The translations under genes were made by a program, and so were the position numbers. Below are positions 3-25,031 of a stretch of DNA of 43,787 bases, piece by piece. The notes beneath the pieces are model-generated. The model had not been told where the DNA came from. It saw only the letters and a list, made by a program, of their open reading frames with translations, and did not search any database. This DNA comes from Acidobacteriota bacterium (GTDB lineage: Bacteria; Acidobacteriota; Blastocatellia; Pyrinomonadales; Pyrinomonadaceae). The stretch's first letter is position 1. Every line of letters begins with the position of its first letter. The stretch spans positions 1 through 43,787 of the forward strand of contig JACCRD010000002.1 in NCBI GenBank assembly GCA_013813755.1. The letters are read 5' to 3'.

Positions 3-38
3 CTTATGTTTGATGTCGAGCTTATGTTTGATGTCGAG
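3..38. repeat. Perfect 18-bp tandem duplication (cttatgtttgatgtcgag x2) at the window edge
   Basis: Bases 3-20 and 21-38 are identical when read directly. The context is an ambiguous, possibly frameshifted 3' gene end. Confidence 0.9.
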
Positions 39-325: not shown

Positions 326-371
326 TACCATTTTGCTGCTTCTTACAATCTTTACAAAATCTCGCCAAAAG

Positions 372-387
372 TGGCACGTCTCTTGCT
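372..387 (+). promoter_or_regulatory. Sigma-54 (RpoN) -24/-12 promoter
   Basis: TGGCACG-tctc-TTGCT matches the consensus TGGCACG-N4-TTGCW at every specified position. It lies about 100 nt upstream of ATG 491. Confidence 0.65.
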
Positions 388-490
388 AATAACCAGTATG
401 CACATCGAAAATTGTATCGTTTGTGTAATAAATGCGCACACTCTCTCTCCTAAACAAACCGCGCATAATAAAAACACTTCAAGGAGAATT

Positions 491-859
491 ATGAGAAATT
501 TATTTAAATTAGGAATTATCGCTTTCGCATTCGGATTATTTTTTATCGGTGCGGATACAGTGAACGGACAGAGCCGTGAAAATCGCAGAGAAGCGCGGCG
601 TGAGTATAGAGATGAAGTTCGTGATGCGCGTCAGGATCGCCGGAGAGACATCAGAAACGGAACGAGCCGTCGTGAAGCAAATCGCGAATTCCGGGATGAG
701 AGACGTGATGCAAGACGCGAGTATCGCAGTGAAACGGGTCGCCGTGTCAATCGCGGTTATAACGTGAGCAAAAGCCGCCGTGCTTACCCACAACAGCAAC
801 AGCAGCAAAGATACCGTGTTTATTACCGCAACGGTCGCCGTTACGTAGTCAGATACTAA
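491..859 (+). CDS. Small secreted Arg-rich repeat protein (122 aa), unknown family
   Basis: AAGGAG at 481-486 precedes ATG 491. The signal peptide is MRNLFKLGIIAFAFGLFFIGADTVNG. I count 32 Arg in the 96-aa mature part, which also has the repeats RREARREYRDEVRDAR / RREANREFRDERRDARREYR, a Q6 run and a Tyr/Arg C-terminus. A strong terminator follows. The track's GTG 371 start overlaps the promoter and is rejected. Confidence 0.75.
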   Translation: MRNLFKLGIIAFAFGLFFIGADTVNGQSRENRREARREYRDEVRDARQDRRRDIRNGTSRREANREFRDERRDARREYRSETGRRVNRGYNVSKSRRAYPQQQQQQRYRVYYRNGRRYVVRY

Positions 860-876
860 TTTCTTAATAAAAACTT

Positions 877-910
877 AAAAAGCCGCGTCTATTACGCGGC
901 TTTTTGTTTT
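877..910 (+). terminator. Rho-independent terminator
   Basis: Stem agccgcgt (881-888) pairs with acgcggct (894-901) around the loop ctatt. It is flanked by AAAA upstream and TTTTTGTTTT downstream. Confidence 0.8.
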
Positions 911-1143
911 AAATTAAAAACATTTCGATTAGGATTTATTCGAGAGAACACAGGCAAAAAATTTAACTCAAAAAAATATATCGAATCGACAAACAGCTTG
1001 CGATAAAATTTTTCTTGAACTCAAAGGGCTTATTTTTATAAATTTTAGTTTTACCCTTTAGACTGAAATTTACCAAAACTGTTAAGCTTTTAATTCCTGA
1101 AACGAGTTTTTAAACACATTCTCAATTAGACGGAGTTTTTAAA

Positions 1144-2082
1144 ATGTCTCTGATTAATATCGATAATTTTAATGCGTCGGACGAGCGCAGAAATTCAGTT
1201 GACATCGACCGCGGAAGAGAATATTGCCGGCAGCTTGAGCAGGGAAAGATTTTTTATTTTGATCACATTCCGTTTAACTTTCCTAAGGAATATCTGACGT
1301 TCCTTTTGTCTCGTCGGCAGCAAAATACCCGCTTTCACAAAAATATCTCATTTCGTCCGCAGACTAATCTGTTGCGCGGCTTTCCCGCCTCAGAAAAAAA
1401 AGATTTTGCTCGCCTTCAGGAAATTATGCAGTTTTATTCAGGGCAAGTAACAAAATTTCTCGCCGCATTTCTGCCGCCGTACGCGGAAAAACGGTTGCTC
1501 GATTACGCAAGTTTTCGCACGATTGAAGAAAACGGGCGTGATTTACCGCTTCACAAACGCAACGAACTTCTGCACGTCGACGCTTTTCCGAACCGTCCGA
1601 CGCGGGGCGGAAGAATCCTTCGGGTTTTTACAAATATTAATCCGACGAAGGAGCGCGTCTGGCAAATCGGCGAAAGTTTTGAACGTCTGGCAGAAAAATA
1701 TGCTTCCGATGCGGGCTTAAATCGAATTGCCGTTCAAAGCGCGTCAACATCCGGCAAAATTGTGCGGCACACTTCGCGATTTCTGAAAAAAATCGGATTG
1801 CCCGTTGCTGATCGTTCCGCTTATGACCATTTTATGCTGCGCTTTCACGATTATTTGAAGGAAAACACCAATTACCAAAAGAATGGAGACAAAACGCGCC
1901 TCGAGTTTCCGCCGAATTCAACGTGGCTGGTTTTTACGGATGGCGTTCCGCATTCGGTTTTGTCCGGGCAGTTCGCGCTTGAGCAAACATTTATCATTCC
2001 GTTTGAAGCGCTTGTTTCCCCCGAAGATTCACCCGCCCGCGTCCTTGAGAAAATGTGCCGGAAATCTTTGATTGCGGTTTAA
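1144..2082 (+). CDS. Kdo hydroxylase (KdoO / PF11004)-like Fe(II)/2-oxoglutarate dioxygenase
   Basis: GGAG lies 8 nt before the ATG. The 312-aa product carries LHVDAFPNRPTRGGRILRVFTNINP (an HxD facial-triad motif) and a distal His in DGVPHSV, which I recall as typical of the KdoO family. Confidence 0.55.
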   Translation: MSLINIDNFNASDERRNSVDIDRGREYCRQLEQGKIFYFDHIPFNFPKEYLTFLLSRRQQNTRFHKNISFRPQTNLLRGFPASEKKDFARLQEIMQFYSGQVTKFLAAFLPPYAEKRLLDYASFRTIEENGRDLPLHKRNELLHVDAFPNRPTRGGRILRVFTNINPTKERVWQIGESFERLAEKYASDAGLNRIAVQSASTSGKIVRHTSRFLKKIGLPVADRSAYDHFMLRFHDYLKENTNYQKNGDKTRLEFPPNSTWLVFTDGVPHSVLSGQFALEQTFIIPFEALVSPEDSPARVLEKMCRKSLIAV

Positions 2083-2090
2083 ATTAAAAC

Positions 2091-2143
2091 GGAACGCGAA
2101 CTTTAGTTCGCATTAGTCATAAACGAACTAAAGTTCGCGTTCC
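2091..2143. other. Perfect 20-bp inverted repeat (hairpin, 13-nt loop) between the KdoO-like gene and trmFO
   Basis: ggaacgcgaactttagttcg (2091-2110) is the exact reverse complement of cgaactaaagttcgcgttcc (2124-2143). On the plus strand it is followed by an A-tract, not a U-tract, and the trmFO ATG starts 12 nt after the stem. Confidence 0.9.
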
Positions 2144-2154
2144 ATAAAAAAAAT

Positions 2155-3498
2155 ATGAAAAATGTAAATGTTATTGGAGGCGGTTTCGCCGGTGTTGAAG
2201 CGGCGTGGCAGGCGGCGGAAAGCGGCGCGCACGTCAGATTATTTGAAATGCGACCCGTCCAAACGACGCCCGCGCACCGCACAGAAAAATTGGCGGAAAT
2301 TGTCTGTTCAAATTCTCTGAAAACCGATGAAGTCGGAACCGCGCCGTATCTTTTGAAAGAAGAATTGCGGCGCGGAGGCTCGATTGTGATGGAAGCGGCG
2401 GAGGCAACCAAAGTTCCGGCTGGCGCAGCGCTCGCGGTTGATCGCGGCAAATTTGCCGAATATGTGACTAAAAAAATTGAAAATCACCCGAATATCGAAT
2501 TGATTCGTGAAGAAATCAAAACAATCGCGCCCGAAGAAATTACGATTATCGCTACCGGTCCGCTCACTTCCGACGCGCTGACGCTTGAAATTATGAAACT
2601 GACGGGCGACGACCAGCTTTATTTTTATGACGCAATCGCGCCGATTGTCGCGGCGGACTCGATTGATATGAGCATTGCTTTTAAGGCTGCGCGTTACGGA
2701 AAAGGCGGCGACGATTATATAAATTGTCCGTTTAACCCGGAGCAATACGCCGCTTTTTACGCCGCCCTGATCGAAGCGAAATCGGTTCCGCTCAAGCGTT
2801 TTGAAGATACGAAATGGTTTGAATCGTGTCTGCCGATTGAAGAACTCGCACGGCGCGGCGTCGATACACTGCGTTTCGGCTGTATGAAGCCGAAAGGTTT
2901 ATACGAGCCGCAGACTGAGCGCGAGCCTTATGCGGCGGTTCAGCTTCGGCAGGAAAATTTGATGGCGGATGCCTATTCGCTCGTCGGTTTTCAGAATCAT
3001 CTTCGTTACGCGGAGCAGGCGACAGTTTTGCGCCTCGTTCCCGGACTCGAAAACGCCGAGTTTCTGCAGTATGGACAAATTCACCGCAATACTTTTATCA
3101 ATTCGCCAAAAGTATTAAACCAGACTTTGCAGACTTTGAAAAATCCAAATTTGTTTTTTGCCGGGCAAATTACGGGCGTCGAAGGTTATGTCGAATCGGT
3201 CGGCACGGGCTGGCTCGCCGGTTTGAACGCGGCGCGTCTCTCACGCAATGAGGATTTGATCGACGCGCCGCCGACGAGCGCGATTGGAGCGCTTTGCAGA
3301 TATGTTTCAAATGTCGAGACGAAAAACTTTCAGCCCGTCAATATTACGTTTGGCTTGCTCGCCGAACCGCCGCTCGAAATTCGCAAAAAATATCGCAACA
3401 AACGCGAACGCCACACGGTGCAGGTAGAGCTGGCGCTTACCGATTGGAACGAGTGGCTTGATCAAACAGAGCCGAAAATTTTCGCTTCCATCGCTTAA
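2155..3498 (+). CDS. trmFO: Methylenetetrahydrofolate--tRNA-(uracil54-C5)-methyltransferase TrmFO (Gid)
   Basis: 447 aa with an N-terminal FAD fold (VIGGGFAGVEAAWQAA) and GidA-like motifs throughout. Length and layout are typical of TrmFO. Confidence 0.9.
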   Translation: MKNVNVIGGGFAGVEAAWQAAESGAHVRLFEMRPVQTTPAHRTEKLAEIVCSNSLKTDEVGTAPYLLKEELRRGGSIVMEAAEATKVPAGAALAVDRGKFAEYVTKKIENHPNIELIREEIKTIAPEEITIIATGPLTSDALTLEIMKLTGDDQLYFYDAIAPIVAADSIDMSIAFKAARYGKGGDDYINCPFNPEQYAAFYAALIEAKSVPLKRFEDTKWFESCLPIEELARRGVDTLRFGCMKPKGLYEPQTEREPYAAVQLRQENLMADAYSLVGFQNHLRYAEQATVLRLVPGLENAEFLQYGQIHRNTFINSPKVLNQTLQTLKNPNLFFAGQITGVEGYVESVGTGWLAGLNAARLSRNEDLIDAPPTSAIGALCRYVSNVETKNFQPVNITFGLLAEPPLEIRKKYRNKRERHTVQVELALTDWNEWLDQTEPKIFASIA

Positions 3499-3504
3499 AA
3501 ATCT

Positions 3505-4068
3505 ATGTCAACTATTGTCGTCGTGAAAAAAAATTCGGAAACAGTCATTGGTGCCGATACCCTGACTACTTACGGAAACACCAAAGAATCAGCTGAATAC
3601 GTTGTTAATCACGAAAAACTTTTCAAATTTCAGGACAATTTTCTGGGCATTTCCGGCTCGGCAAGTTTGGGAATCGCGGTTGAAGATTTTTTATCGAAAA
3701 GCAGCAAAAAAATATCTTTTGAAAGCGTTGCGAAAATTTTTCGATTCGGACTCGTTCTGCACAAAGAATTAAAGGAAAACTATTTTCTGCGCCCTGATGA
3801 CGAAGAAGATTTTGAAACCTTCAGAGGTGACATTTTAATCGCTAACCAGAAAGGAATATTCGGTTTAAGCGCGTATCGCTACGTTCAGGAATACACTCGA
3901 TTTTACGCGAGCGGAAGCGGCAGCCAATACGCGATTGGAGCGATGTTCGCCGTTTACAATTCGGGTAAAACGGCTGAGGAAATTGCGAAACTTGGAGTGC
4001 AAGCCGGAGTTGAATTTGACGACGGTTCTGGTTTGCCGATTACTCTGCACAAAATCAATATAAAATGA
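3505..4068 (+). CDS. HslV-like Ntn-hydrolase (proteasome beta / peptidase T1B-like), with no HslU partner
   Basis: MSTIVVVKKNSETVIGADTLTTYGNT aligns with E. coli HslV [26 protein letters not shown], with Ser in place of the Thr1 nucleophile. LGISGSA corresponds to AGFAGGT and ASGSGSQYAIGA to AIGSGGPYAQAA. The gene starts 6 nt after the trmFO stop. Confidence 0.6.
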   Translation: MSTIVVVKKNSETVIGADTLTTYGNTKESAEYVVNHEKLFKFQDNFLGISGSASLGIAVEDFLSKSSKKISFESVAKIFRFGLVLHKELKENYFLRPDDEEDFETFRGDILIANQKGIFGLSAYRYVQEYTRFYASGSGSQYAIGAMFAVYNSGKTAEEIAKLGVQAGVEFDDGSGLPITLHKINIK

Positions 4069-4799
4069 TTGAATCGACAGCGATTTTTATAATTTTAGCG
4101 ATTTTCGTTGTCGCCATTCTCTACTCATCCGTCGGACACGGCGGTGCGTCCGGTTATCTAGCGGTGATGGCTTTTTTTTCGGTGGCGCCGAACGTGACGC
4201 GCCCGACCGCTCTGCTTCTCAATGTTTTTGTCGCTTCAATCGCTTTTTTTCAGTTTTATCGCGCAAAGCATTTTGAATGGAAAATCTTTTTGCCGTTCGC
4301 TGCAACTTCAATTCCGTTTGCCTTTGTCGGCGGGATGATAACTTTGCCGACACCTATTTATAAATTTTTTCTCGGCGCGGTTTTGATATTTGCCGCCGTT
4401 CGGCTCGCCTGGAATTTTACGTCCGCAAAAGAGACTGTCATGCCGAAAATTTGGATCGCCTTGATCATCGGCGCGGTGATCGGTCTTTTGTCGGGACTGG
4501 TCGGCGTCGGCGGCGGAATTTTTCTGACACCGATTCTGCTGCTTCTCAACTGGACAGAGACGAAAAAGGCGGCGGGCGTTTCCGCTCTGTTTATTCTTGT
4601 CAATTCGATTTCCGGGCTGCTCGGAAATTATAAACAAGTCTTTGAGCTTTCAACCGATGTCTGGATTTGGATCGTCGCGGCGGTGGTTGGCGGCGTTATC
4701 GGCGCGACTCTCGGAAGCCTGTATTTTGATTCGCTGACTCTGCGGCGCGTTTTGGCGTTTGTTCTTTTAATGGCGGGTGCAAAACTAATTTTTACTTGA
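4065..4799 (+). CDS. TauE/SafE (DUF81) family anion-exporter-like membrane protein
   Basis: 244 aa and polytopic, with Gly-rich TM motifs (GHGGASGYL, VGVGGGIFLTPILLL). Its ATG overlaps the upstream stop as ATGA at 4065-4068. Confidence 0.75.
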   Translation: MIESTAIFIILAIFVVAILYSSVGHGGASGYLAVMAFFSVAPNVTRPTALLLNVFVASIAFFQFYRAKHFEWKIFLPFAATSIPFAFVGGMITLPTPIYKFFLGAVLIFAAVRLAWNFTSAKETVMPKIWIALIIGAVIGLLSGLVGVGGGIFLTPILLLLNWTETKKAAGVSALFILVNSISGLLGNYKQVFELSTDVWIWIVAAVVGGVIGATLGSLYFDSLTLRRVLAFVLLMAGAKLIFT

Positions 4800-4893
4800 A
4801 ACAAAAATAAAAAAGCCTGAGCTTTCAACTCAGACTTTTCTAGTAAAATAATCAGTCGCAGCTAACATAAAATCGCGTCGTCCGCATTGTTAT

Positions 4894-5469
4894 TTAGAAA
4901 GGAAGTGGAAACGGAATGCTGTTGCGCCAGTTTCCGTTATTTGTATTGCGATTGCGATTGTTGTTGCGATTATTACCGCGATTATTGCGGTTGTTGTTGA
5001 AGTTATACGCGCTTGCTAAAACCTGCAAATCCTGACGAATTCTGTTCCAGTCGTTCTGGACATTATTGTTCAGACGGGCGCGGGAAATCTGTCGATCGAT
5101 TTGCGAACCGAGAGTCAAAACGCGCTGCGCTTCATCCTGGCTGCTATTGTAGTCACGGCGATTGTCATATTGGTTATCGAGGTTTTCCGCCGCATTCGCA
5201 AAATCCTGAGCTAATTGATTAAGACGATCTTCACGTCTTCGTTCATCATATCGGCTGTTATCAAGCTCGCGGTCAATTCGACGCTCAAATTGATTGCTGC
5301 GGTTTTTCAAATTTTTAATAGTTGACTGCAAATTGCGGTTGTAATTACCGCCATTTCGGTTGTAGTCATCATTACGATTATTGCCCCACTGCGCCGAAGC
5401 GATTGCAGGCAAGCCTAAGATTAGGAGAGAAAAAGCAAAAACTGCAACTAAATTTCTAAAACGGTTCAT
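4894..5469 (-). CDS. Secreted Asn/Arg/Asp-rich protein (191 aa), unknown family
   Basis: AAGGAG (5482-5477 on the minus strand) lies 7 nt before ATG 5469. The signal peptide is MNRFRNLVAVFAFSLLILGLPAIASA. About a quarter of the mature part is Asn, with a predicted helical core between N-rich tails (NNNRNNRGNNRNNNRNRNTNNGN). The longer track ORF (to 5595) is rejected. Confidence 0.75.
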   Translation of the reverse strand: MNRFRNLVAVFAFSLLILGLPAIASAQWGNNRNDDYNRNGGNYNRNLQSTIKNLKNRSNQFERRIDRELDNSRYDERRREDRLNQLAQDFANAAENLDNQYDNRRDYNSSQDEAQRVLTLGSQIDRQISRARLNNNVQNDWNRIRQDLQVLASAYNFNNNRNNRGNNRNNNRNRNTNNGNWRNSIPFPLPF

Positions 5470-5551
5470 AATAATTCTCCTTAGACAAAAACTTTTGTCA
5501 CAACGCATATTTTCTTTTGCCTCGCGGCGCGTTATGTTCGACTTTTGAATA

Positions 5552-5567
5552 GGCAAAGTTCGTGCCA
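5552..5567 (-). promoter_or_regulatory. Sigma-54 (RpoN) -24/-12 promoter
   Basis: The minus strand reads TGGCACG-aact-TTGCC. This matches the consensus except the final W. It lies about 80 nt upstream of ATG 5469. Confidence 0.6.
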
Positions 5568-5594: not shown

Positions 5595-5620
5595 AAAAGC
5601 CCTGCAGAAAAAGGGCTTTT
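5595..5620 (-). terminator. Terminator-like hairpin in a divergent intergenic region (no gene to terminate)
   Basis: aaaagccct (5595-5603) pairs with agggctttt (5612-5620) around an 8-nt loop. On the minus strand TGTTTTTC follows. It sits 28 nt upstream of the sigma-54 -24 element. Confidence 0.4.
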
Positions 5621-5875
5621 ACAGATTTAAATTGATTTTGAATTCTTGCAAAACGAAGATGCGACTTGCAGAATGTTCCAAATGGTTGAGAACTTAACGC
5701 AGATTGTTGAAAGAAAACCTGTCAGGAGAAAATTGCCCTCGGTGTTGAATGTCGCCGAAATTTATTATCGTATAAATTTATAGTCAGATACTTTATGCAA
5801 CAAAATCCAAACATCGCCCGTAAAAATGTCAATCGTTTGGGCTTCAATTCGTTACGCTCGGAAAACAATTCAAAT

Positions 5876-18812: not shown

Positions 18813-19337
18813 TGTTTAAAGTTAAAAACAAAAACTGAATTTCGCTTTCGCGATAAATAAATGATTTTATATTGTAATTTTTTACTTTGAAATAAAAATA
18901 ATATTTACTCATCTACGTAGTAATTGATTCCCGTTTTTACAGTACTTTCTTCCTTTTTCACAGGAGTTTTTTCCCTTATTTACTACAAAAAGGCAGGAAC
19001 AATTTCCTGAAAAGCGTAAAATTGTTATTGACTTTCCTTGCTATTTATGATCAATTAGCCATCGGATAAGTTTCAAACTTTCAACAATTAGTGTTCATAA
19101 AAAAGTTTTCAAGTCGAATTTTAGTTACTAATGATTTGGTTTTATAGTTTTTTAAAATCTATCTGCAATTAGATTTCTAAGTATGTTTAAGAATTTGAGA
19201 ATAATGATTCATTACTACCCCTCTCCCCAGGTGGAAGTGATAGCAATACACCCTTTCAAACTTATTATTTGAACAAACCTTGTTTAAATAAATAAATTAG
19301 GTTCATAAAATTGAGTAGTTATAACAAAGGAGACGAA

Positions 19338-20825
19338 ATGAAGAACAAAGAAAATAGAATATTTACGTTGTTAAGTATAGCGGCAATGATGTTTTTGTCG
19401 TTGGCAACAACACAAGTACAAGCTCAAACATTCAGCGGACGAGCGGTCGGCACCCAGTCGACCACGACCTCTCAGGTGGGCGCAACAACACCAGTAGAAA
19501 TAGCTGTAGCTGCTAATGCTGCTGCTCGCCTTGCTGATACGGGTGAACTTCCTCCACAAGGCGGCAGTCGTACAGCTAGTGTGGTTAATGCCAGTGTCGC
19601 TTTAGGTACAGCGCCGGTAACGGGAACTCTCAACACTGGTCTCATCACGGCGAGTACTTCGGGTAGTAACGGCACGAGCCAGTCACAAGCAAGGGTCGAG
19701 GGTCTGAATTTGCTTGTAGGTGGTACTTTAGGCACTTTCAGAATTACCGCCAATGCTATAACAACGAACACCAATTGTGTGTGTGGTGGACCGGCTGGAG
19801 CGACTGCGACCTGTACGGGCAATACCGATATAGCAAACCTTGTCGTCCAGAGCTCAACCGGAACAGTTCTCGCAAGCTTTGACGCGCGAGTTACTGCGCC
19901 TAATACAACGGTGTTTACGACTACTGCTTCAACGGATGTCGGGTCCGGGAGCACTCAGGTACAAACCACAACGACAATTACCATTATTGCTAACGAACAG
20001 ACGAGAACCCCTGATGATGGTATTCCTGCTACCGATGACATTACGGTCAACGGACTGCGCGTCATCGTAACTGAAACTGTGACTGTTGGAACTGGTGGTA
20101 ATGCTGTCACTACCACTACAACCAGTGATACTATTATCGCCCAGGCTAAATCCGACATTAACTGTACGGCAACGCCATTGACGGATTTACAAATTACAAA
20201 AACTTGTGTCAATAATGCCAACGTCATTACTTGTACGATTACCGTAACAAACATTAGCGGCAATGCCGCCACAAACGTTATTGTGACGGATAATTTGTCC
20301 AACGACACAACTTTTGCCTCGGCATCGACAAGTGGATTTACTACGCTTACAACACCGATAGTCGGCGCACGGGGAGGCACGGTAACCGGCACGGTAGCAA
20401 CGCTCGCAAGCGGAGCATCAGCAACCATTACAATTGTGTCAAATGTCGCTCCCGGCACGCCGGCTGGCACTCAAATCGCGAACACTGCCACAGTGGCGAC
20501 TGCAACCACTGACGCGGTCGTTGCAAACAATACAGCATCGGCAACGGTCACAGTTCTTGCACCAACAGCAGCGTCAGCTACTATTAGCGGACGAGTCTTA
20601 ACTTCAAAAGGACGTGGCTTACCCGGAGCGACGGTTGTTTTAACGAATCAGAACGGTGAAGTTAAATATGCGGTTACTAATTCGCGCGGTTATTATCGAT
20701 TCGCTGATATAGAGGTTGGCGAAGACTATTTCCTGAGCGTGAAAAGTAAACGTTATGTTTTTGCTACACAATCAATCTCTTTCATAGAGGAATTAACTGA
20801 TATTGATTTTATGCCAACGCAGTAA
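19338..20825 (+). CDS. Secreted surface protein: Thr/Ala/Gly-rich N-region + DUF11 (TIGR01451) repeat + C-terminal carboxypeptidase-regulatory-like domain
   Basis: AAGGAGA (19327-19333) precedes ATG 19338, giving the signal peptide IFTLLSIAAMMFLSLATTQVQA. The DUF11-like segment reads LQITKTC...TITVTNISGNAATNVIVTDNL...TATVAT...NNTASATVTV. The CarboxypepD_reg-like segment reads ISGRVLTSKGRGLPGATVVLTNQNGE...TNSRGYYRFADIEVG. Confidence 0.8.
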   Translation: MKNKENRIFTLLSIAAMMFLSLATTQVQAQTFSGRAVGTQSTTTSQVGATTPVEIAVAANAAARLADTGELPPQGGSRTASVVNASVALGTAPVTGTLNTGLITASTSGSNGTSQSQARVEGLNLLVGGTLGTFRITANAITTNTNCVCGGPAGATATCTGNTDIANLVVQSSTGTVLASFDARVTAPNTTVFTTTASTDVGSGSTQVQTTTTITIIANEQTRTPDDGIPATDDITVNGLRVIVTETVTVGTGGNAVTTTTTSDTIIAQAKSDINCTATPLTDLQITKTCVNNANVITCTITVTNISGNAATNVIVTDNLSNDTTFASASTSGFTTLTTPIVGARGGTVTGTVATLASGASATITIVSNVAPGTPAGTQIANTATVATATTDAVVANNTASATVTVLAPTAASATISGRVLTSKGRGLPGATVVLTNQNGEVKYAVTNSRGYYRFADIEVGEDYFLSVKSKRYVFATQSISFIEELTDIDFMPTQ

Positions 20826-23900: not shown

Positions 23901-25031
23901 TTATTGTTTTAGACGTTGTTCCAGCACTTGTCTGATAATTGAATCAGCTTTTTGCTCAACGACCTGAAAGGCTACTTCCCTGACAATTTTTTCAAAAAGT
24001 TTTTCAATTATCTTCTCCGCAATCGCGTCAATCATTTCCGGCGGAAAATTCGCTGTTTGGAACACCGGAGTTTCAATAATATTTGTGTCGTCCAAACTGT
24101 TAAAAGAATATGTTTCAAATAAAGAAGCAAATTCATCAGAAACGTTTTTCGGCGACGCGGATTCGCCTTCGTCTGTCTGAATTTGCTCAGGGGAAAATCG
24201 TTCTGAAGTTTGTATGCCTTCGCTACCTGCCTGAATTTCTTTTGTCAACTCGCTTTCACGCGCCGTTTCGACGCTTACCGAATGCTGTTCGTTGATTGAC
24301 TCATCAACCGGCGTGTTTATCTGCTCCGGCTTCGTATCTTCAGTATCCGCAGTAACTTCGTAAACTTCACCCGCGCTTAGAGCTCGTGTTTTCTCCGTCC
24401 CCAGTTCGCCGACTGCCGCGTATTCGTCTGTATTTTTAAAATGAGTTTCGCGCGGGTTTTCAGATGCGCCCGGCACAAAGTCTTCGGACGGTTCGATGAC
24501 AAGTTTCGTTTCAAACTTTCGCGATTCATCCGCCGGCAGACTGCCGATTTGGTCGGTTCGGATGTTTTCATCATTCATTCGCGCAGCCTCTGGACGGTCG
24601 CCATTTTCCACATCCAAATTTGTCTCTGTCGTGGCTGAGGAAAAATTTTCGCCGCCATTCAATGGCAGAAGAGCCGAAACTTTTCTAACCAACTGACCGA
24701 TTGATTGAAAGGGTTTTGTTAAAAAATCATCGGCTCCGGCGCGGCTTGCGCGATTTTCGTCGAATGGCTCGAATGAACCGACGAGCAAAATAACCGGAAT
24801 TGTCGGCGAATCGGCGCGCTGTTTGATCTGCTCGCAAATTTCGAACCCGTTCAAACCGGGCAGATTAACATCAACCAACACCAAATCAGGAGCGAATTCG
24901 GCAACCATTCGCAGCGCGGTCGCGCCGTCGTTCGCCGTCAGAACTTCAATTCCCTGATCGGCGAATGTTAGATTGACGACCTTTTGAATCGTTTTTGAAT
25001 CATCTGCCAAAAGCAATTTTCGTTTCGACAC
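23901..25031 (-). CDS. Response regulator: REC domain + long acidic low-complexity region + short conserved-looking C-terminal helix; no DNA-binding or AAA+ output domain recognised
   Basis: The start is GTG 25031, with AAGGAG 12 nt upstream. REC motifs are LLLADDS, LVLVDVNLPG and FLTKPF. The C-terminus reads PPEMIDAIAEKIIEKLFEKIVREVAFQVVEQKADSIIRQVLEQ. Confidence 0.8.
   Translation of the reverse strand: MSKRKLLLADDSKTIQKVVNLTFADQGIEVLTANDGATALRMVAEFAPDLVLVDVNLPGLNGFEICEQIKQRADSPTIPVILLVGSFEPFDENRASRAGADDFLTKPFQSIGQLVRKVSALLPLNGGENFSSATTETNLDVENGDRPEAARMNDENIRTDQIGSLPADESRKFETKLVIEPSEDFVPGASENPRETHFKNTDEYAAVGELGTEKTRALSAGEVYEVTADTEDTKPEQINTPVDESINEQHSVSVETARESELTKEIQAGSEGIQTSERFSPEQIQTDEGESASPKNVSDEFASLFETYSFNSLDDTNIIETPVFQTANFPPEMIDAIAEKIIEKLFEKIVREVAFQVVEQKADSIIRQVLEQRLKQ

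Follow-up and report, generated by a model that had tools for sequence, protein, structure and literature searches.

We examined two genes, A and B, in a 43,787-nt stretch of DNA from a Pyrinomonadaceae soil acidobacterium (contig JACCRD010000002.1; this whole stretch is referred to as the window), each of which is preceded by a sequence resembling a sigma-54 (-24/-12) promoter. Our analysis makes it likely that A and B are independent monocistronic sigma-54 units and that they belong to a lineage-wide set of exported, nitrogen-rich envelope proteins. A previous reading of the window from its letters alone (the sequence-only reading) had stated that the only two full matches to TGGCACG-N4-TTGC (TGGCACGNNNNTTGC) precede the genes for an Arg-rich (A) and an Asn/Arg-rich (B) secreted protein on opposite strands, and both the count and the placement are correct. 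The pattern occurs exactly twice, 0.03 occurrences are expected from 100 dinucleotide shuffles of the window, and no shuffle gave two; together with the conservation upstream of homologues described below, this rules out chance. We trained a position weight matrix (PWM; consensus TGGCAC-N5-TTGC, ~1.8 bits at the GG and TTGC positions) on the homologous A and B sites, and on this scale the two window sites (see the table) lead the third-best site, which reaches 12.8 bits, by more than 9 bits. Each motif is oriented toward its gene and ends 104 nt (A) or 83 nt (B) from the ATG, with predicted transcription starts near 398 and near 5541, respectively.

The same element stands upstream of the homologues of both genes. 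Among 78 genomic loci fetched via the B family (the B loci), a near-consensus -24/-12 element was present in 69 of 70 distinct upstream regions, with 59–161 nt (median 86) between the end of the motif and the ATG and with 1.90 bits of information in the core versus 0.20 in the 40-nt flanks; it was kept down to ~36% protein identity, into Blastocatellaceae and Aridibacter. In 73 metagenomic loci collected through A-family homologues (the A loci), TGGCA[CT]-N5-TTGC was found in 28 of 32 acidobacterial-type upstream regions (75–124 nt to the ATG, median 98.5; core 1.89 bits versus 0.37 in the flanks), and two of the four exceptions keep degraded GG/GC versions at the expected place. None of the scanned upstream regions of distant A homologues that are high in GC and apparently proteobacterial contained it. 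Anchored alignment showed that the five bases between the half-sites are free, while the GG and GC dinucleotides and their consensus neighbors are conserved at invariant spacing, and the surrounding intergenic DNA of A and B orthologues has diverged while the sequence, orientation and distance of the motif have stayed. A conserved core, a free spacer, diverged flanks and a constrained distance are the footprint expected of a functional sigma-54 promoter, and we therefore agree with the sequence-only reading that both motifs probably act as genuine sigma-54 promoters.

Target genes beyond the window

We counted TGGCA[CT]-N5-TTGC on both strands of 1.42 Mb of acidobacterial loci, where base composition predicts 5.4 occurrences, and found 91: 62 before B genes, 27 before A genes, and two others. 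The two others precede a B-like paralogue (L074) and a 181-aa Gln/Tyr/Gly/Arg/Asn-rich protein with a strong Shine-Dalgarno sequence (L038), which is the type member of family C, described below. Across 1.4–1.6 Mb of related DNA the motif is nearly exclusive to such genes, and the lineage-wide set makes up nearly all recognizable sigma-54 promoters in the DNA sampled. Outside A and B targets the motif is rarer than composition predicts (2 versus 5.4 expected in total, both small numbers), a deficit that hints at selection against stray sigma-54 motifs.

Family C was found with the promoter model alone. The L038 protein (positions 19222–19767) is secreted and has at least 991 homologues, all but one of the organism-named members being Pyrinomonadaceae, and the family has no Pfam match; one source labels it "FliH," probably a low-complexity artefact. 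Members are ~180 aa long, with a QKQQQK coiled N-terminal part and a Tyr/Gly/Gln-rich C-terminal part (L038, L152–L161). The promoter is present in five of six independent lineages, 81–131 nt upstream, together with a GGAG Shine-Dalgarno sequence, and in 155 kb of C-locus flanks PWM matches of at least 14 bits occur upstream of C genes only; the exception without a promoter (L158/L159) lies directly after an FtsX gene. Similarity between A and C is limited to a 15-residue motif, RYRVY(Y)RNG, which is internal in C and reaches only E = 0.07, so we do not regard the two families as homologous.

The PWM scan added two further B-like paralogues with the element (L061 and L070). It also picked a type IV pilin-like gene (L023:12687, plus strand; MKKNQKGFSLIELLIVV..), which has the near match TGGCACGATGTTTGT 92 nt upstream; pilin genes are classic sigma-54 targets, and this match is probably such a promoter for a pilin of the lineage. 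Family C and the paralogues indicate that the theme put forward in the sequence-only reading, sigma-54 paired with small secreted nitrogen-rich proteins, is real and wider than the window, and it extends further to long, anchored proteins that contain B-type domains. Six of these (P0337, P0360, P0363, P0378, P0384 and P0408; 646–783 aa, from Pyrinomonadaceae where named) combine a signal peptide, two or three B-type bundles, a beta-rich domain and a C-terminal YMGG glycine zipper (PF13441). One of their genes, which encodes an anchored triple bundle (L162:3001–5352), has CGGCACGCGCATTGCA (CGGCAC-N5-TTGCA) 91 nt upstream of its start, and L163:3001–4962 has a weaker CGGCAC-N5-TTGC 196 nt upstream. 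The only annotated distant relative of A, P0210 from Sphingomonas, is built in a similar way: its repeats, the same as those of A, precede a glycine-zipper 2TM domain (PF05433). Since relatives of both the A and the B modules are fused to glycine zippers, these modules appear to be used at the envelope membrane surface, and the A and B products probably act at the cell envelope; the window proteins themselves have neither a glycine zipper nor a lipobox and would therefore be soluble versions.

Exported products and start regions of A and B

A and B each have their own terminator, a 70–95-nt leader, a Sec-type signal peptide and an extremely hydrophilic, net-cationic product. The sequence-only reading had described both products as rich in nitrogen through Arg, Asn and Gln, a composition that we find family-wide. 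Side-chain nitrogen amounts to 1.16 atoms per residue in mature A, 0.82 in mature B and 0.63 in C, versus 0.33 ± 0.075 (maximum 0.49) in the other 27 window proteins, which places the three 4–11 standard deviations above the rest of the window proteome; their net charges are +18, +8 and +16, and this composition is conserved within the families, Cys being absent and His nearly so. Arg makes up 33% of mature A, which has an isoelectric point (pI) of 11.5 (family range 10.2–11.8, at net charges of +9 to +24), and mature B is 24% Asn and 15–16% Arg. We found ~90 homologues of A, none with a family assignment, and at least 639 of B; in both families the source-named members are Acidobacteriota, mostly Pyrinomonadaceae.

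The AlphaFold model of A places helices at residues 30–55 and 60–82 (predicted local distance difference test, pLDDT, ~85) and strands at 108–121, and would correspond to a helical hairpin of two Arg/Asp/Glu/Tyr repeats, a disordered Gln-rich linker and a C-terminal beta-hairpin, YRVYYRNGRRYVVRY. For B the model gives a four-helix bundle (residues 42–156, pLDDT 85–93) between a predicted disordered Asn/Arg/Asp-rich N-terminal tail and a disordered Asn/Arg-rich C-terminal tail that ends in a conserved PFPLPF. A search with the core domain of B returned 519 clusters at 50% identity, with one to three tandem copies per protein. Neither protein has a Pfam or NCBIfam match, and PDB sequence profiles returned nothing meaningful for either; the fold search gave E values of 5 or above for A, and Foldseek returned only generic four-helix bundles for B (E ≥ 0.085, TM score 0.52–0.65).

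Three resemblances between A and B that the sequence-only reading had listed are present but say less about shared regulation than it had supposed. The common 12-nt initiation region, AAGGAGAATTAT, does occur exactly twice in the window, in a different register to the start codon (AAGGAGAATTATG in A, AAGGAGAATTATTATG in B), but the exact 12-mer is not conserved (1 of 69 B loci, which is the window itself, and 5 of 29 A loci) and reduces to a GGAG Shine-Dalgarno sequence plus an AT spacer; we rejected it as a shared regulatory element. GGAG itself is kept in 69 of 69 B loci (AAGGAG in 49 of 69) and in 24 of 29 A loci. Most of the 29 gene starts in the window have no Shine-Dalgarno sequence, GGAG or AGGA being seen at A, B and a few others (1144, 15286, 23901 and 36600), so the strong one of A and B is exceptional in this organism, and its conservation suggests high translation, not a shared operator. 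The signal peptides are similar in that both contain FAF, which is enriched in the families (22 of 25 B, 88%; 17 of 23 A, 74%), a modest likeness given that FAF is also found in 11% (20 of 183) of other signal-peptide-like ORFs (open reading frames) of the lineage.

The mature N-terminal Gln, the third resemblance, is invariant in both families but is a lineage-wide trait, and we do not count it as a special feature of A and B. In ORFs of at least 200 aa from L001–L078 and L152–L161, with a crude heuristic for the cleavage site, [AGS]Q directly followed the hydrophobic core in 180 of 254 signal-peptide-like ORFs (71%), compared with 78 of 655 other ORFs (12%) at the same positions. The window has further instances, such as the tricorn protease whose gene starts at 5795, where ..SASA is followed by QK. 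This "Q-rule", by which substrates of signal peptidase I acquire pyroglutamate N-termini, has been described as Bacteroidetes-specific, with scattered high values elsewhere in the Fibrobacteres–Chlorobi–Bacteroidetes (FCB) group (PMC5837995). Gln after the cleavage site is likewise found in A, B, C and most exported proteins of the loci analyzed here, which calls the Bacteroidetes-specific view into question and marks the trait as a property of the lineage and not of a regulon.

We also considered the leaders of A and B as regulatory RNA, a candidate for which the evidence is too weak to make a claim. The A leader has a conserved block, ACACATCGAAA..TCGTTTGTGTAAYAA, in the anchored alignment, and its stem of five pairs is nearly invariant, with no compensatory double changes (RNAalifold), so the structure is plausible on conservation alone; a second stem of the GCACA..UGUGC type follows the first (ACACA..UGUGU). 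Three of the five pairs of the B leader stem show compensatory double changes, and its consensus energy is weak (RNAalifold). No Rfam family reaches its gathering threshold anywhere in the window.

Upstream elements and competing explanations

We envisage that RNA polymerase–sigma-54 would be held in a closed complex at each of these promoters, as is general for the sigma-54 class, until a signal causes an AAA+ bacterial enhancer-binding protein (bEBP), whose gene would lie elsewhere in the genome, to hydrolyze ATP. The set so controlled in Pyrinomonadaceae and other Blastocatellia would comprise A, B, C, the B-like paralogues and the glycine-zipper-anchored multi-bundle proteins, and its products would be abundant, signal-induced proteins of the periplasm or the outer-membrane surface with a stress-protective, chaperone-like or polyanion-binding role. 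The sequence-only reading had noted that the window encodes no AAA+ enhancer-binding protein, and our motif and profile searches confirm this: the GAFTGA/ESELFGH motif is absent in all six frames, and no ORF of at least 275 aa matches Sigma54_activat. A local activator gene beside A or B was likewise rejected as a general arrangement, because a complete NtrC-type bEBP (receiver, sigma-54-interaction AAA+ domain and Fis-type helix-turn-helix) was seen ~3 kb from B in two Pyrinomonadaceae metagenome-assembled genome loci, L050 and L051, alone.

At B the activator would bind a conserved upstream block. CCATTTGG or a near variant (CGATATCG, CGATATGG or CTATATGG) is present in ~55 of 69 B loci at a near-fixed distance from the -24 element, this sequence starting at -116 to -123 or at -106 to -110 relative to it, one helical turn apart, and in one locus at -114. 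The extended pattern A[AC]CCATTTGG[AG][AG] has 38 matches in 1.57 Mb, all 38 upstream of B genes in the right orientation, when 0.4 are expected. A motif search did not find the block upstream of A, by eye it is absent from C, and it is not an ORF. It is a candidate enhancer, most likely bound by a dedicated activator, and the fact that the length of the spacer is kept, or altered by one helical turn, despite varying sequence fits DNA looping at B. We also tried the block as an extracytoplasmic function (ECF)-type promoter, and with 14 of 49 blocks fitting GGRRC-N16-CGT we keep this as a minority possibility.

Between the B block and the -24 element of the window lies a terminator-like hairpin; the intergenic region there separates divergent genes and has no evident transcript to terminate. 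By eye, ~19 of 69 B loci, the window included, have an equivalent hairpin whose stems differ in sequence and stay complementary. The spacer folds at -9 kcal/mol or below in 26 of 69 loci; the loci without such a hairpin have an AT-rich spacer of equal length with phased A/T tracts. A small divergent ORF (M..CSKW..) upstream of B proved not to be a gene, since it shows immediate stops and variable lengths.

Upstream of A we found a different element, the A-box (TKACA-N5-TTTACA), in about half of the A loci (the window, L079, L082–85, L087–88, L094, L104–106 and L109), which is a candidate site for a regulator or for DNA bending. The gap from the upstream gene to the -24 element is only ~45–110 nt in many A loci. 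Most other A loci have the same conserved gene upstream, ending ..FPFGVSIVIVAKK; it does not appear in the window. In one locus (L093) the A-family gene is present as a tandem pair of paralogues, both with a -24/-12 element of their own (TGGCATAGTGATTGCC and TGGCACGCCGCTTGCG).

What the three promoter types have in common is only a loosely placed TTKACA hexamer, enriched relative to shuffles in B (27 of 69 loci versus 9.2 ± 2.7), in A (-85 to -5; 14 of 28 versus 4.2 ± 1.9) and in C leaders (10 versus 1.3 ± 1.1), in a test that ignores the relatedness of the loci. TTGACA or TTTACA hexamers, often phased by 10 bp, lie at -45 to -15 in A, at -70 to -15 in some B loci (in reverse, in hairpin loops) and at +58 to +84 in C leaders, so that they occupy family-specific positions in 39–67% of loci; they could be a site for a shared factor or reflect intrinsic DNA bending. 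Strict 10-bp-phased TTKACA repeats occur in 7 of 95 promoter regions, again at family-specific positions, and were rejected as a common operator. The same activator site is thus not common to A, B and C, and their distinct upstream elements favor separate activator inputs to families that appear to share a sigma factor.

This bears directly on the proposal of the sequence-only reading that A and B form a mini-regulon. In its fullest form, with a single NtrC-like, nitrogen-sensing activator and products that serve as an exported nitrogen reserve or are otherwise linked to nitrogen, we find the proposal improbable. It does agree with the sigma-54 promoters of both genes, with a conserved nitrogen richness of A, B and C that stands well above the window proteome, with the TTKACA hexamers at all three promoter types, which could mark a shared factor, and with the greater frequency of FAF in A and B signal peptides than in the background. 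However, the closeness of A and B in the window is incidental, since tblastn of A against the B loci with 10-kb flanks found an A homologue within 10 kb of B in none of 78 genomes; the B block is strictly B-specific, and by eye the upstream sequence of C is different; the hexamers lie upstream in A and B and in the leader in C, in part of the loci and with relatedness uncorrected; and no NtrC-type site or glnA-type context was seen at the loci. Proteins that nitrogen starvation induces are usually low in nitrogen (elemental sparing), so nitrogen-costly proteins are an unlikely output of a nitrogen-starvation response. A nitrogen-storage or nitrogen-regulated role for A and B, toward which nothing but their composition points, is improbable. 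Sigma-54 itself is not nitrogen-specific (PMC3162934). The opposite possibility, that the promoters are real and the genes functionally unrelated, each family having come under sigma-54 independently with its own activator and the composition being merely tolerated in abundant, disordered exported proteins, is one we consider doubtful but take seriously. The upstream elements do differ by family, A, B and C are not syntenic and show no homology beyond the short motif shared by A and C, and the predicted folds of A and B differ. Yet it would then have to be by remarkable coincidence that virtually all strong sigma-54 sites in ~1.6 Mb lie before genes of one kind: small and monocistronic, with a long leader and a strong Shine-Dalgarno sequence, and encoding a product that has a signal peptide and is cationic, hydrophilic and rich in nitrogen. 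The glycine-zipper anchors carried by relatives of both the A and the B modules speak against it as well.

For A alone, a role as a secreted antimicrobial or competition factor would come as a surprise to us. The Cys-free, cationic and amphipathic C-terminal beta-hairpin (YRVYYRNGRRYVVRY) would be the active part, working in the manner of beta-hairpin host-defense peptides, and the helical, Arg/Asp/Glu-rich part a pro-region; the high charge and pI of the family, the strong conservation of the C terminus and a predicted hairpin with an NG turn after a disordered linker fit such a role, and the hairpin may resemble arenicin- or tachyplesin-type peptides. Against it, the conserved neighbors include no immunity, transporter or processing gene, A is a single-copy, vertically conserved chromosomal gene, the RYRVY(Y)RNG motif that it shares with family C is internal there, and its distant relatives are glycine-zipper-anchored, which suggests a role in the envelope of the producer itself.

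Several points weigh against the reading that we prefer, in which A and B are separate sigma-54 units of a set of envelope proteins. The promoter case for both genes is strongly supported, but it rests wholly on sequence conservation, and rpoN was seen in none of the fetched Pyrinomonadaceae loci. Both facts would also suit a TGGCAC-N5-TTGC that is the site of some other DNA- or RNA-binding factor, or that arose by chance, which we think very improbable: chance is excluded by the expectation of 0.03 and by conservation in ~100 independent loci, the conserved positions are exactly GG/GC and their neighbors at invariant spacing around five free bases, the motif keeps its orientation and its distance from the start codon, a PWM built from A and B sites picks a pilin gene, and bEBPs exist in Pyrinomonadaceae. 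RpoN is present in all three Acidobacteria genomes surveyed in a published comparison (PMC3372290, Table 1). A bEBP gene is not a conserved neighbor, only L050 and L051 having one; no enhancer for A was identified in the A upstream regions; the terminator-like hairpin between the B block and the -24 element is unexplained by this reading; and the 14 of 49 blocks with an ECF-type pattern mean that the block could be a second promoter in some lineages. The proposed function has no homology support, as there was no Pfam, NCBIfam, PDB-sequence or significant fold match. Homologous loci share phylogeny, so the counts overstate the number of independent events. Finally, all loci were reached via A, B or C and other genes were sampled by their flanks alone (~1.5 Mb), so it is an extrapolation that the set is most of the regulon. 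We put forward only tentatively the broader idea that the lineage devotes a small sigma-54 regulon largely to at least three unrelated, hitherto undescribed families of abundant, Sec-exported, polycationic, nitrogen-rich and partly disordered proteins, some soluble and some glycine-zipper-anchored, that remodel or protect the periplasm and the outer-membrane surface on a specific signal. An envelope response of this sort would be new in kind, and would belong to a soil lineage that is dominant but little studied.

Known systems and other features of the window

The closest analogue that we know of for A and B as sigma-54-controlled envelope proteins is ZraP with its ZraSR system (Escherichia coli and Salmonella), a periplasmic protein that is sigma-54/ZraR-dependent and responds to envelope stress (PMC4987338). 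Like A and B as we read them, it is a small, helical, Sec-exported product of a monocistronic gene whose sole promoter is sigma-54-dependent. The resemblance is functional only, not homologous. ZraP belongs to the CpxP/Spy family, and A and B do not match LTXXQ (PF07813) or Metal_resist (PF13801) even at E ≤ 1, although genuine members of these families are recognized in L158, so the models work in this lineage; the absence of Cys and near-absence of His from A and B makes a Zn-binding mechanism unlikely for them; zraP is divergent from its own activator genes zraSR, whereas A and B have no activator nearby; and A and B carry far more charge and are in part disordered. The LTXXQ/Metal_resist (CpxP/Spy-like) proteins of L158 (3577–5795) are two in number and flank an ECF sigma/anti-sigma pair ~4 kb from the one C gene without a sigma-54 promoter, so the lineage has a conventional envelope-stress module too.

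According to one published proposal, sigma-54 governs the exterior of the bacterial cell (PMC3162934). As with pilA (under PilR), flagellins and the psp operon, sigma-54 would drive abundant exported or envelope proteins in A, B and C, which differ from those systems in having signal-peptidase-I leaders in place of prepilin leaders, no homology to them and no adjacent assembly genes. Glycine-zipper outer-membrane lipoproteins (PF13441, PF05433/Rick_17kDa_Anti) are linked to the set through the fusions to distant relatives of the A and B modules. OsmB- and SlyB-type proteins are glycine-zipper outer-membrane stress lipoproteins, and the known ones are under RpoS or PhoPQ and are not known to be under sigma-54. 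Hydrophilins and late embryogenesis abundant (LEA)-like proteins are, like A, B and C, very hydrophilic, of low complexity and partly disordered, but they are mostly cytoplasmic and Gly-rich, whereas A and B are exported by a signal peptide and have folded cores. By the hydrophilin definition (Gly > 6%, hydrophilicity index > 1), A (grand average of hydropathy, GRAVY, -2.38; Gly 4.2%) and B (-1.78; 3.6%) both fail on Gly, and C passes on both counts (-1.45; 10.5%). The nitrogen regulation (Ntr; NtrC/sigma-54) regulon uses the same promoter class, and several of its targets are exported periplasmic proteins, but A and B have neither a nitrogen-assimilation context nor NtrC-type sites, and their products are expensive in nitrogen. 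Four-helix bundles of the metal-storage (Csp) and inhibitor (PMEI) types are not significantly matched by B, with Foldseek at E = 0.085 at best, and B has no Cys, the residue that lines the Csp bundle.

The kind of regulation is a known one; the novelty lies in the families that it targets and in the way in which sigma-54 appears to be dedicated to them in this lineage. Our literature searches found nothing relevant on sigma-54 promoters in Acidobacteria and no paper describing this set of sigma-54-controlled secreted proteins. To our knowledge, almost nothing is known of gene regulation in Pyrinomonadaceae and Blastocatellia, which are reported to be abundant in soils and in arid ones in particular. 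Record and isolate names alone point to a soil origin for many of the loci, including desert and Antarctic samples. The ~100 independent loci yield a clean, lineage-specific sigma-54 promoter model together with its main targets, among them three large unannotated families (at least 639, ~90 and at least 991 homologues for B, A and C) that are built for high-level export. If the products do form an induced envelope coat, a chaperone set or a polyanion binder, the view that sigma-54 governs the bacterial exterior would gain a new phylum and a new effector class. The promoters, the candidate enhancer and the distinctive products offer handles on stress physiology in cultured relatives.

The features located in the window are collected in the table.

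Table 1. Positions of features associated with genes A and B in the window; promoters, enhancer, A-box and leader structures are predictions.
Feature	Position	Strand	Description
A-box	342-359	+	CTTACAATCTTTACAAAA; two TKACA repeats phased by 10 bp; box ends 13 nt before the -24 element
Sigma-54 -24/-12 promoter of A	372-386	+	TGGCACGTCTCTTGC; exact consensus match; PWM 22.3 bits (second best in window)
A 5' untranslated region (UTR)	398-490	+	~93 nt; conserved stem ACACA...UGUGU at ~400-427, near predicted 5' end
Translation-initiation region of A	481-492	+	AAGGAGAATTAT; strong Shine-Dalgarno sequence plus AT spacer into ATG
Gene A	491-859	+	ORF; 122-aa precursor; signal peptide cleavage between ..VNG and Q; mature protein 96 aa
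Intrinsic terminator of A	876-906	+	13-pair stem plus T-run
Intrinsic terminator of B	4842-4808	-	Bidirectional; common to the convergent TauE-family gene
Gene B	4894-5469	-	ORF; 191-aa precursor; signal peptide cleavage between ..ASA and Q
B 5' UTR	5470-5541	-	~72 nt; long-range stem of type GGCAACGC...GCGUUGCC
Translation-initiation region of B	5471-5482	-	AAGGAGAATTAT, then TATG
Sigma-54 -24/-12 promoter of B	5553-5567	-	TGGCACGAACTTTGC; exact match; PWM 25.5 bits (best in window)
Terminator-like hairpin	5595-5620	-	A-tract / GC stem / T-tract, terminator-like either way; between B block and -24
B-specific upstream block (candidate enhancer)	5673-5711	-	TTCGACAATCTGCG-N10-AACCATTTGGAACAT, also written TTCAACAATCTGCG-N10-AACCATTTGGAACAT; ~118 bp upstream of -24

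By profile search, the genes between A and B encode a Kdo hydroxylase, TrmFO, an Ntn-type hydrolase and TauE and are unrelated to either; the convergent TauE / Ntn-hydrolase / TrmFO order downstream of B recurs in ~22 loci. Beyond B lies the tricorn/S41 protease gene (start 5795), and the remaining window genes include a dcw cell-division cluster, Lon, valyl-tRNA synthetase (ValRS), PdxA, von Willebrand factor A (VWA) proteins and one response regulator without an AAA+ domain. This response regulator (23901–25031, minus strand; 376 aa) consists of a receiver and ~250 C-terminal residues with no Pfam match at E ≤ 1e-5; it is among the few window genes with a strong Shine-Dalgarno sequence and is not a sigma-54 activator. 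Right at the beginning of the window (3–38, plus strand), ~330 nt upstream of the A promoter, we noted a perfect 18-nt tandem duplication, CTTATGTTTGATGTCGAG x2.

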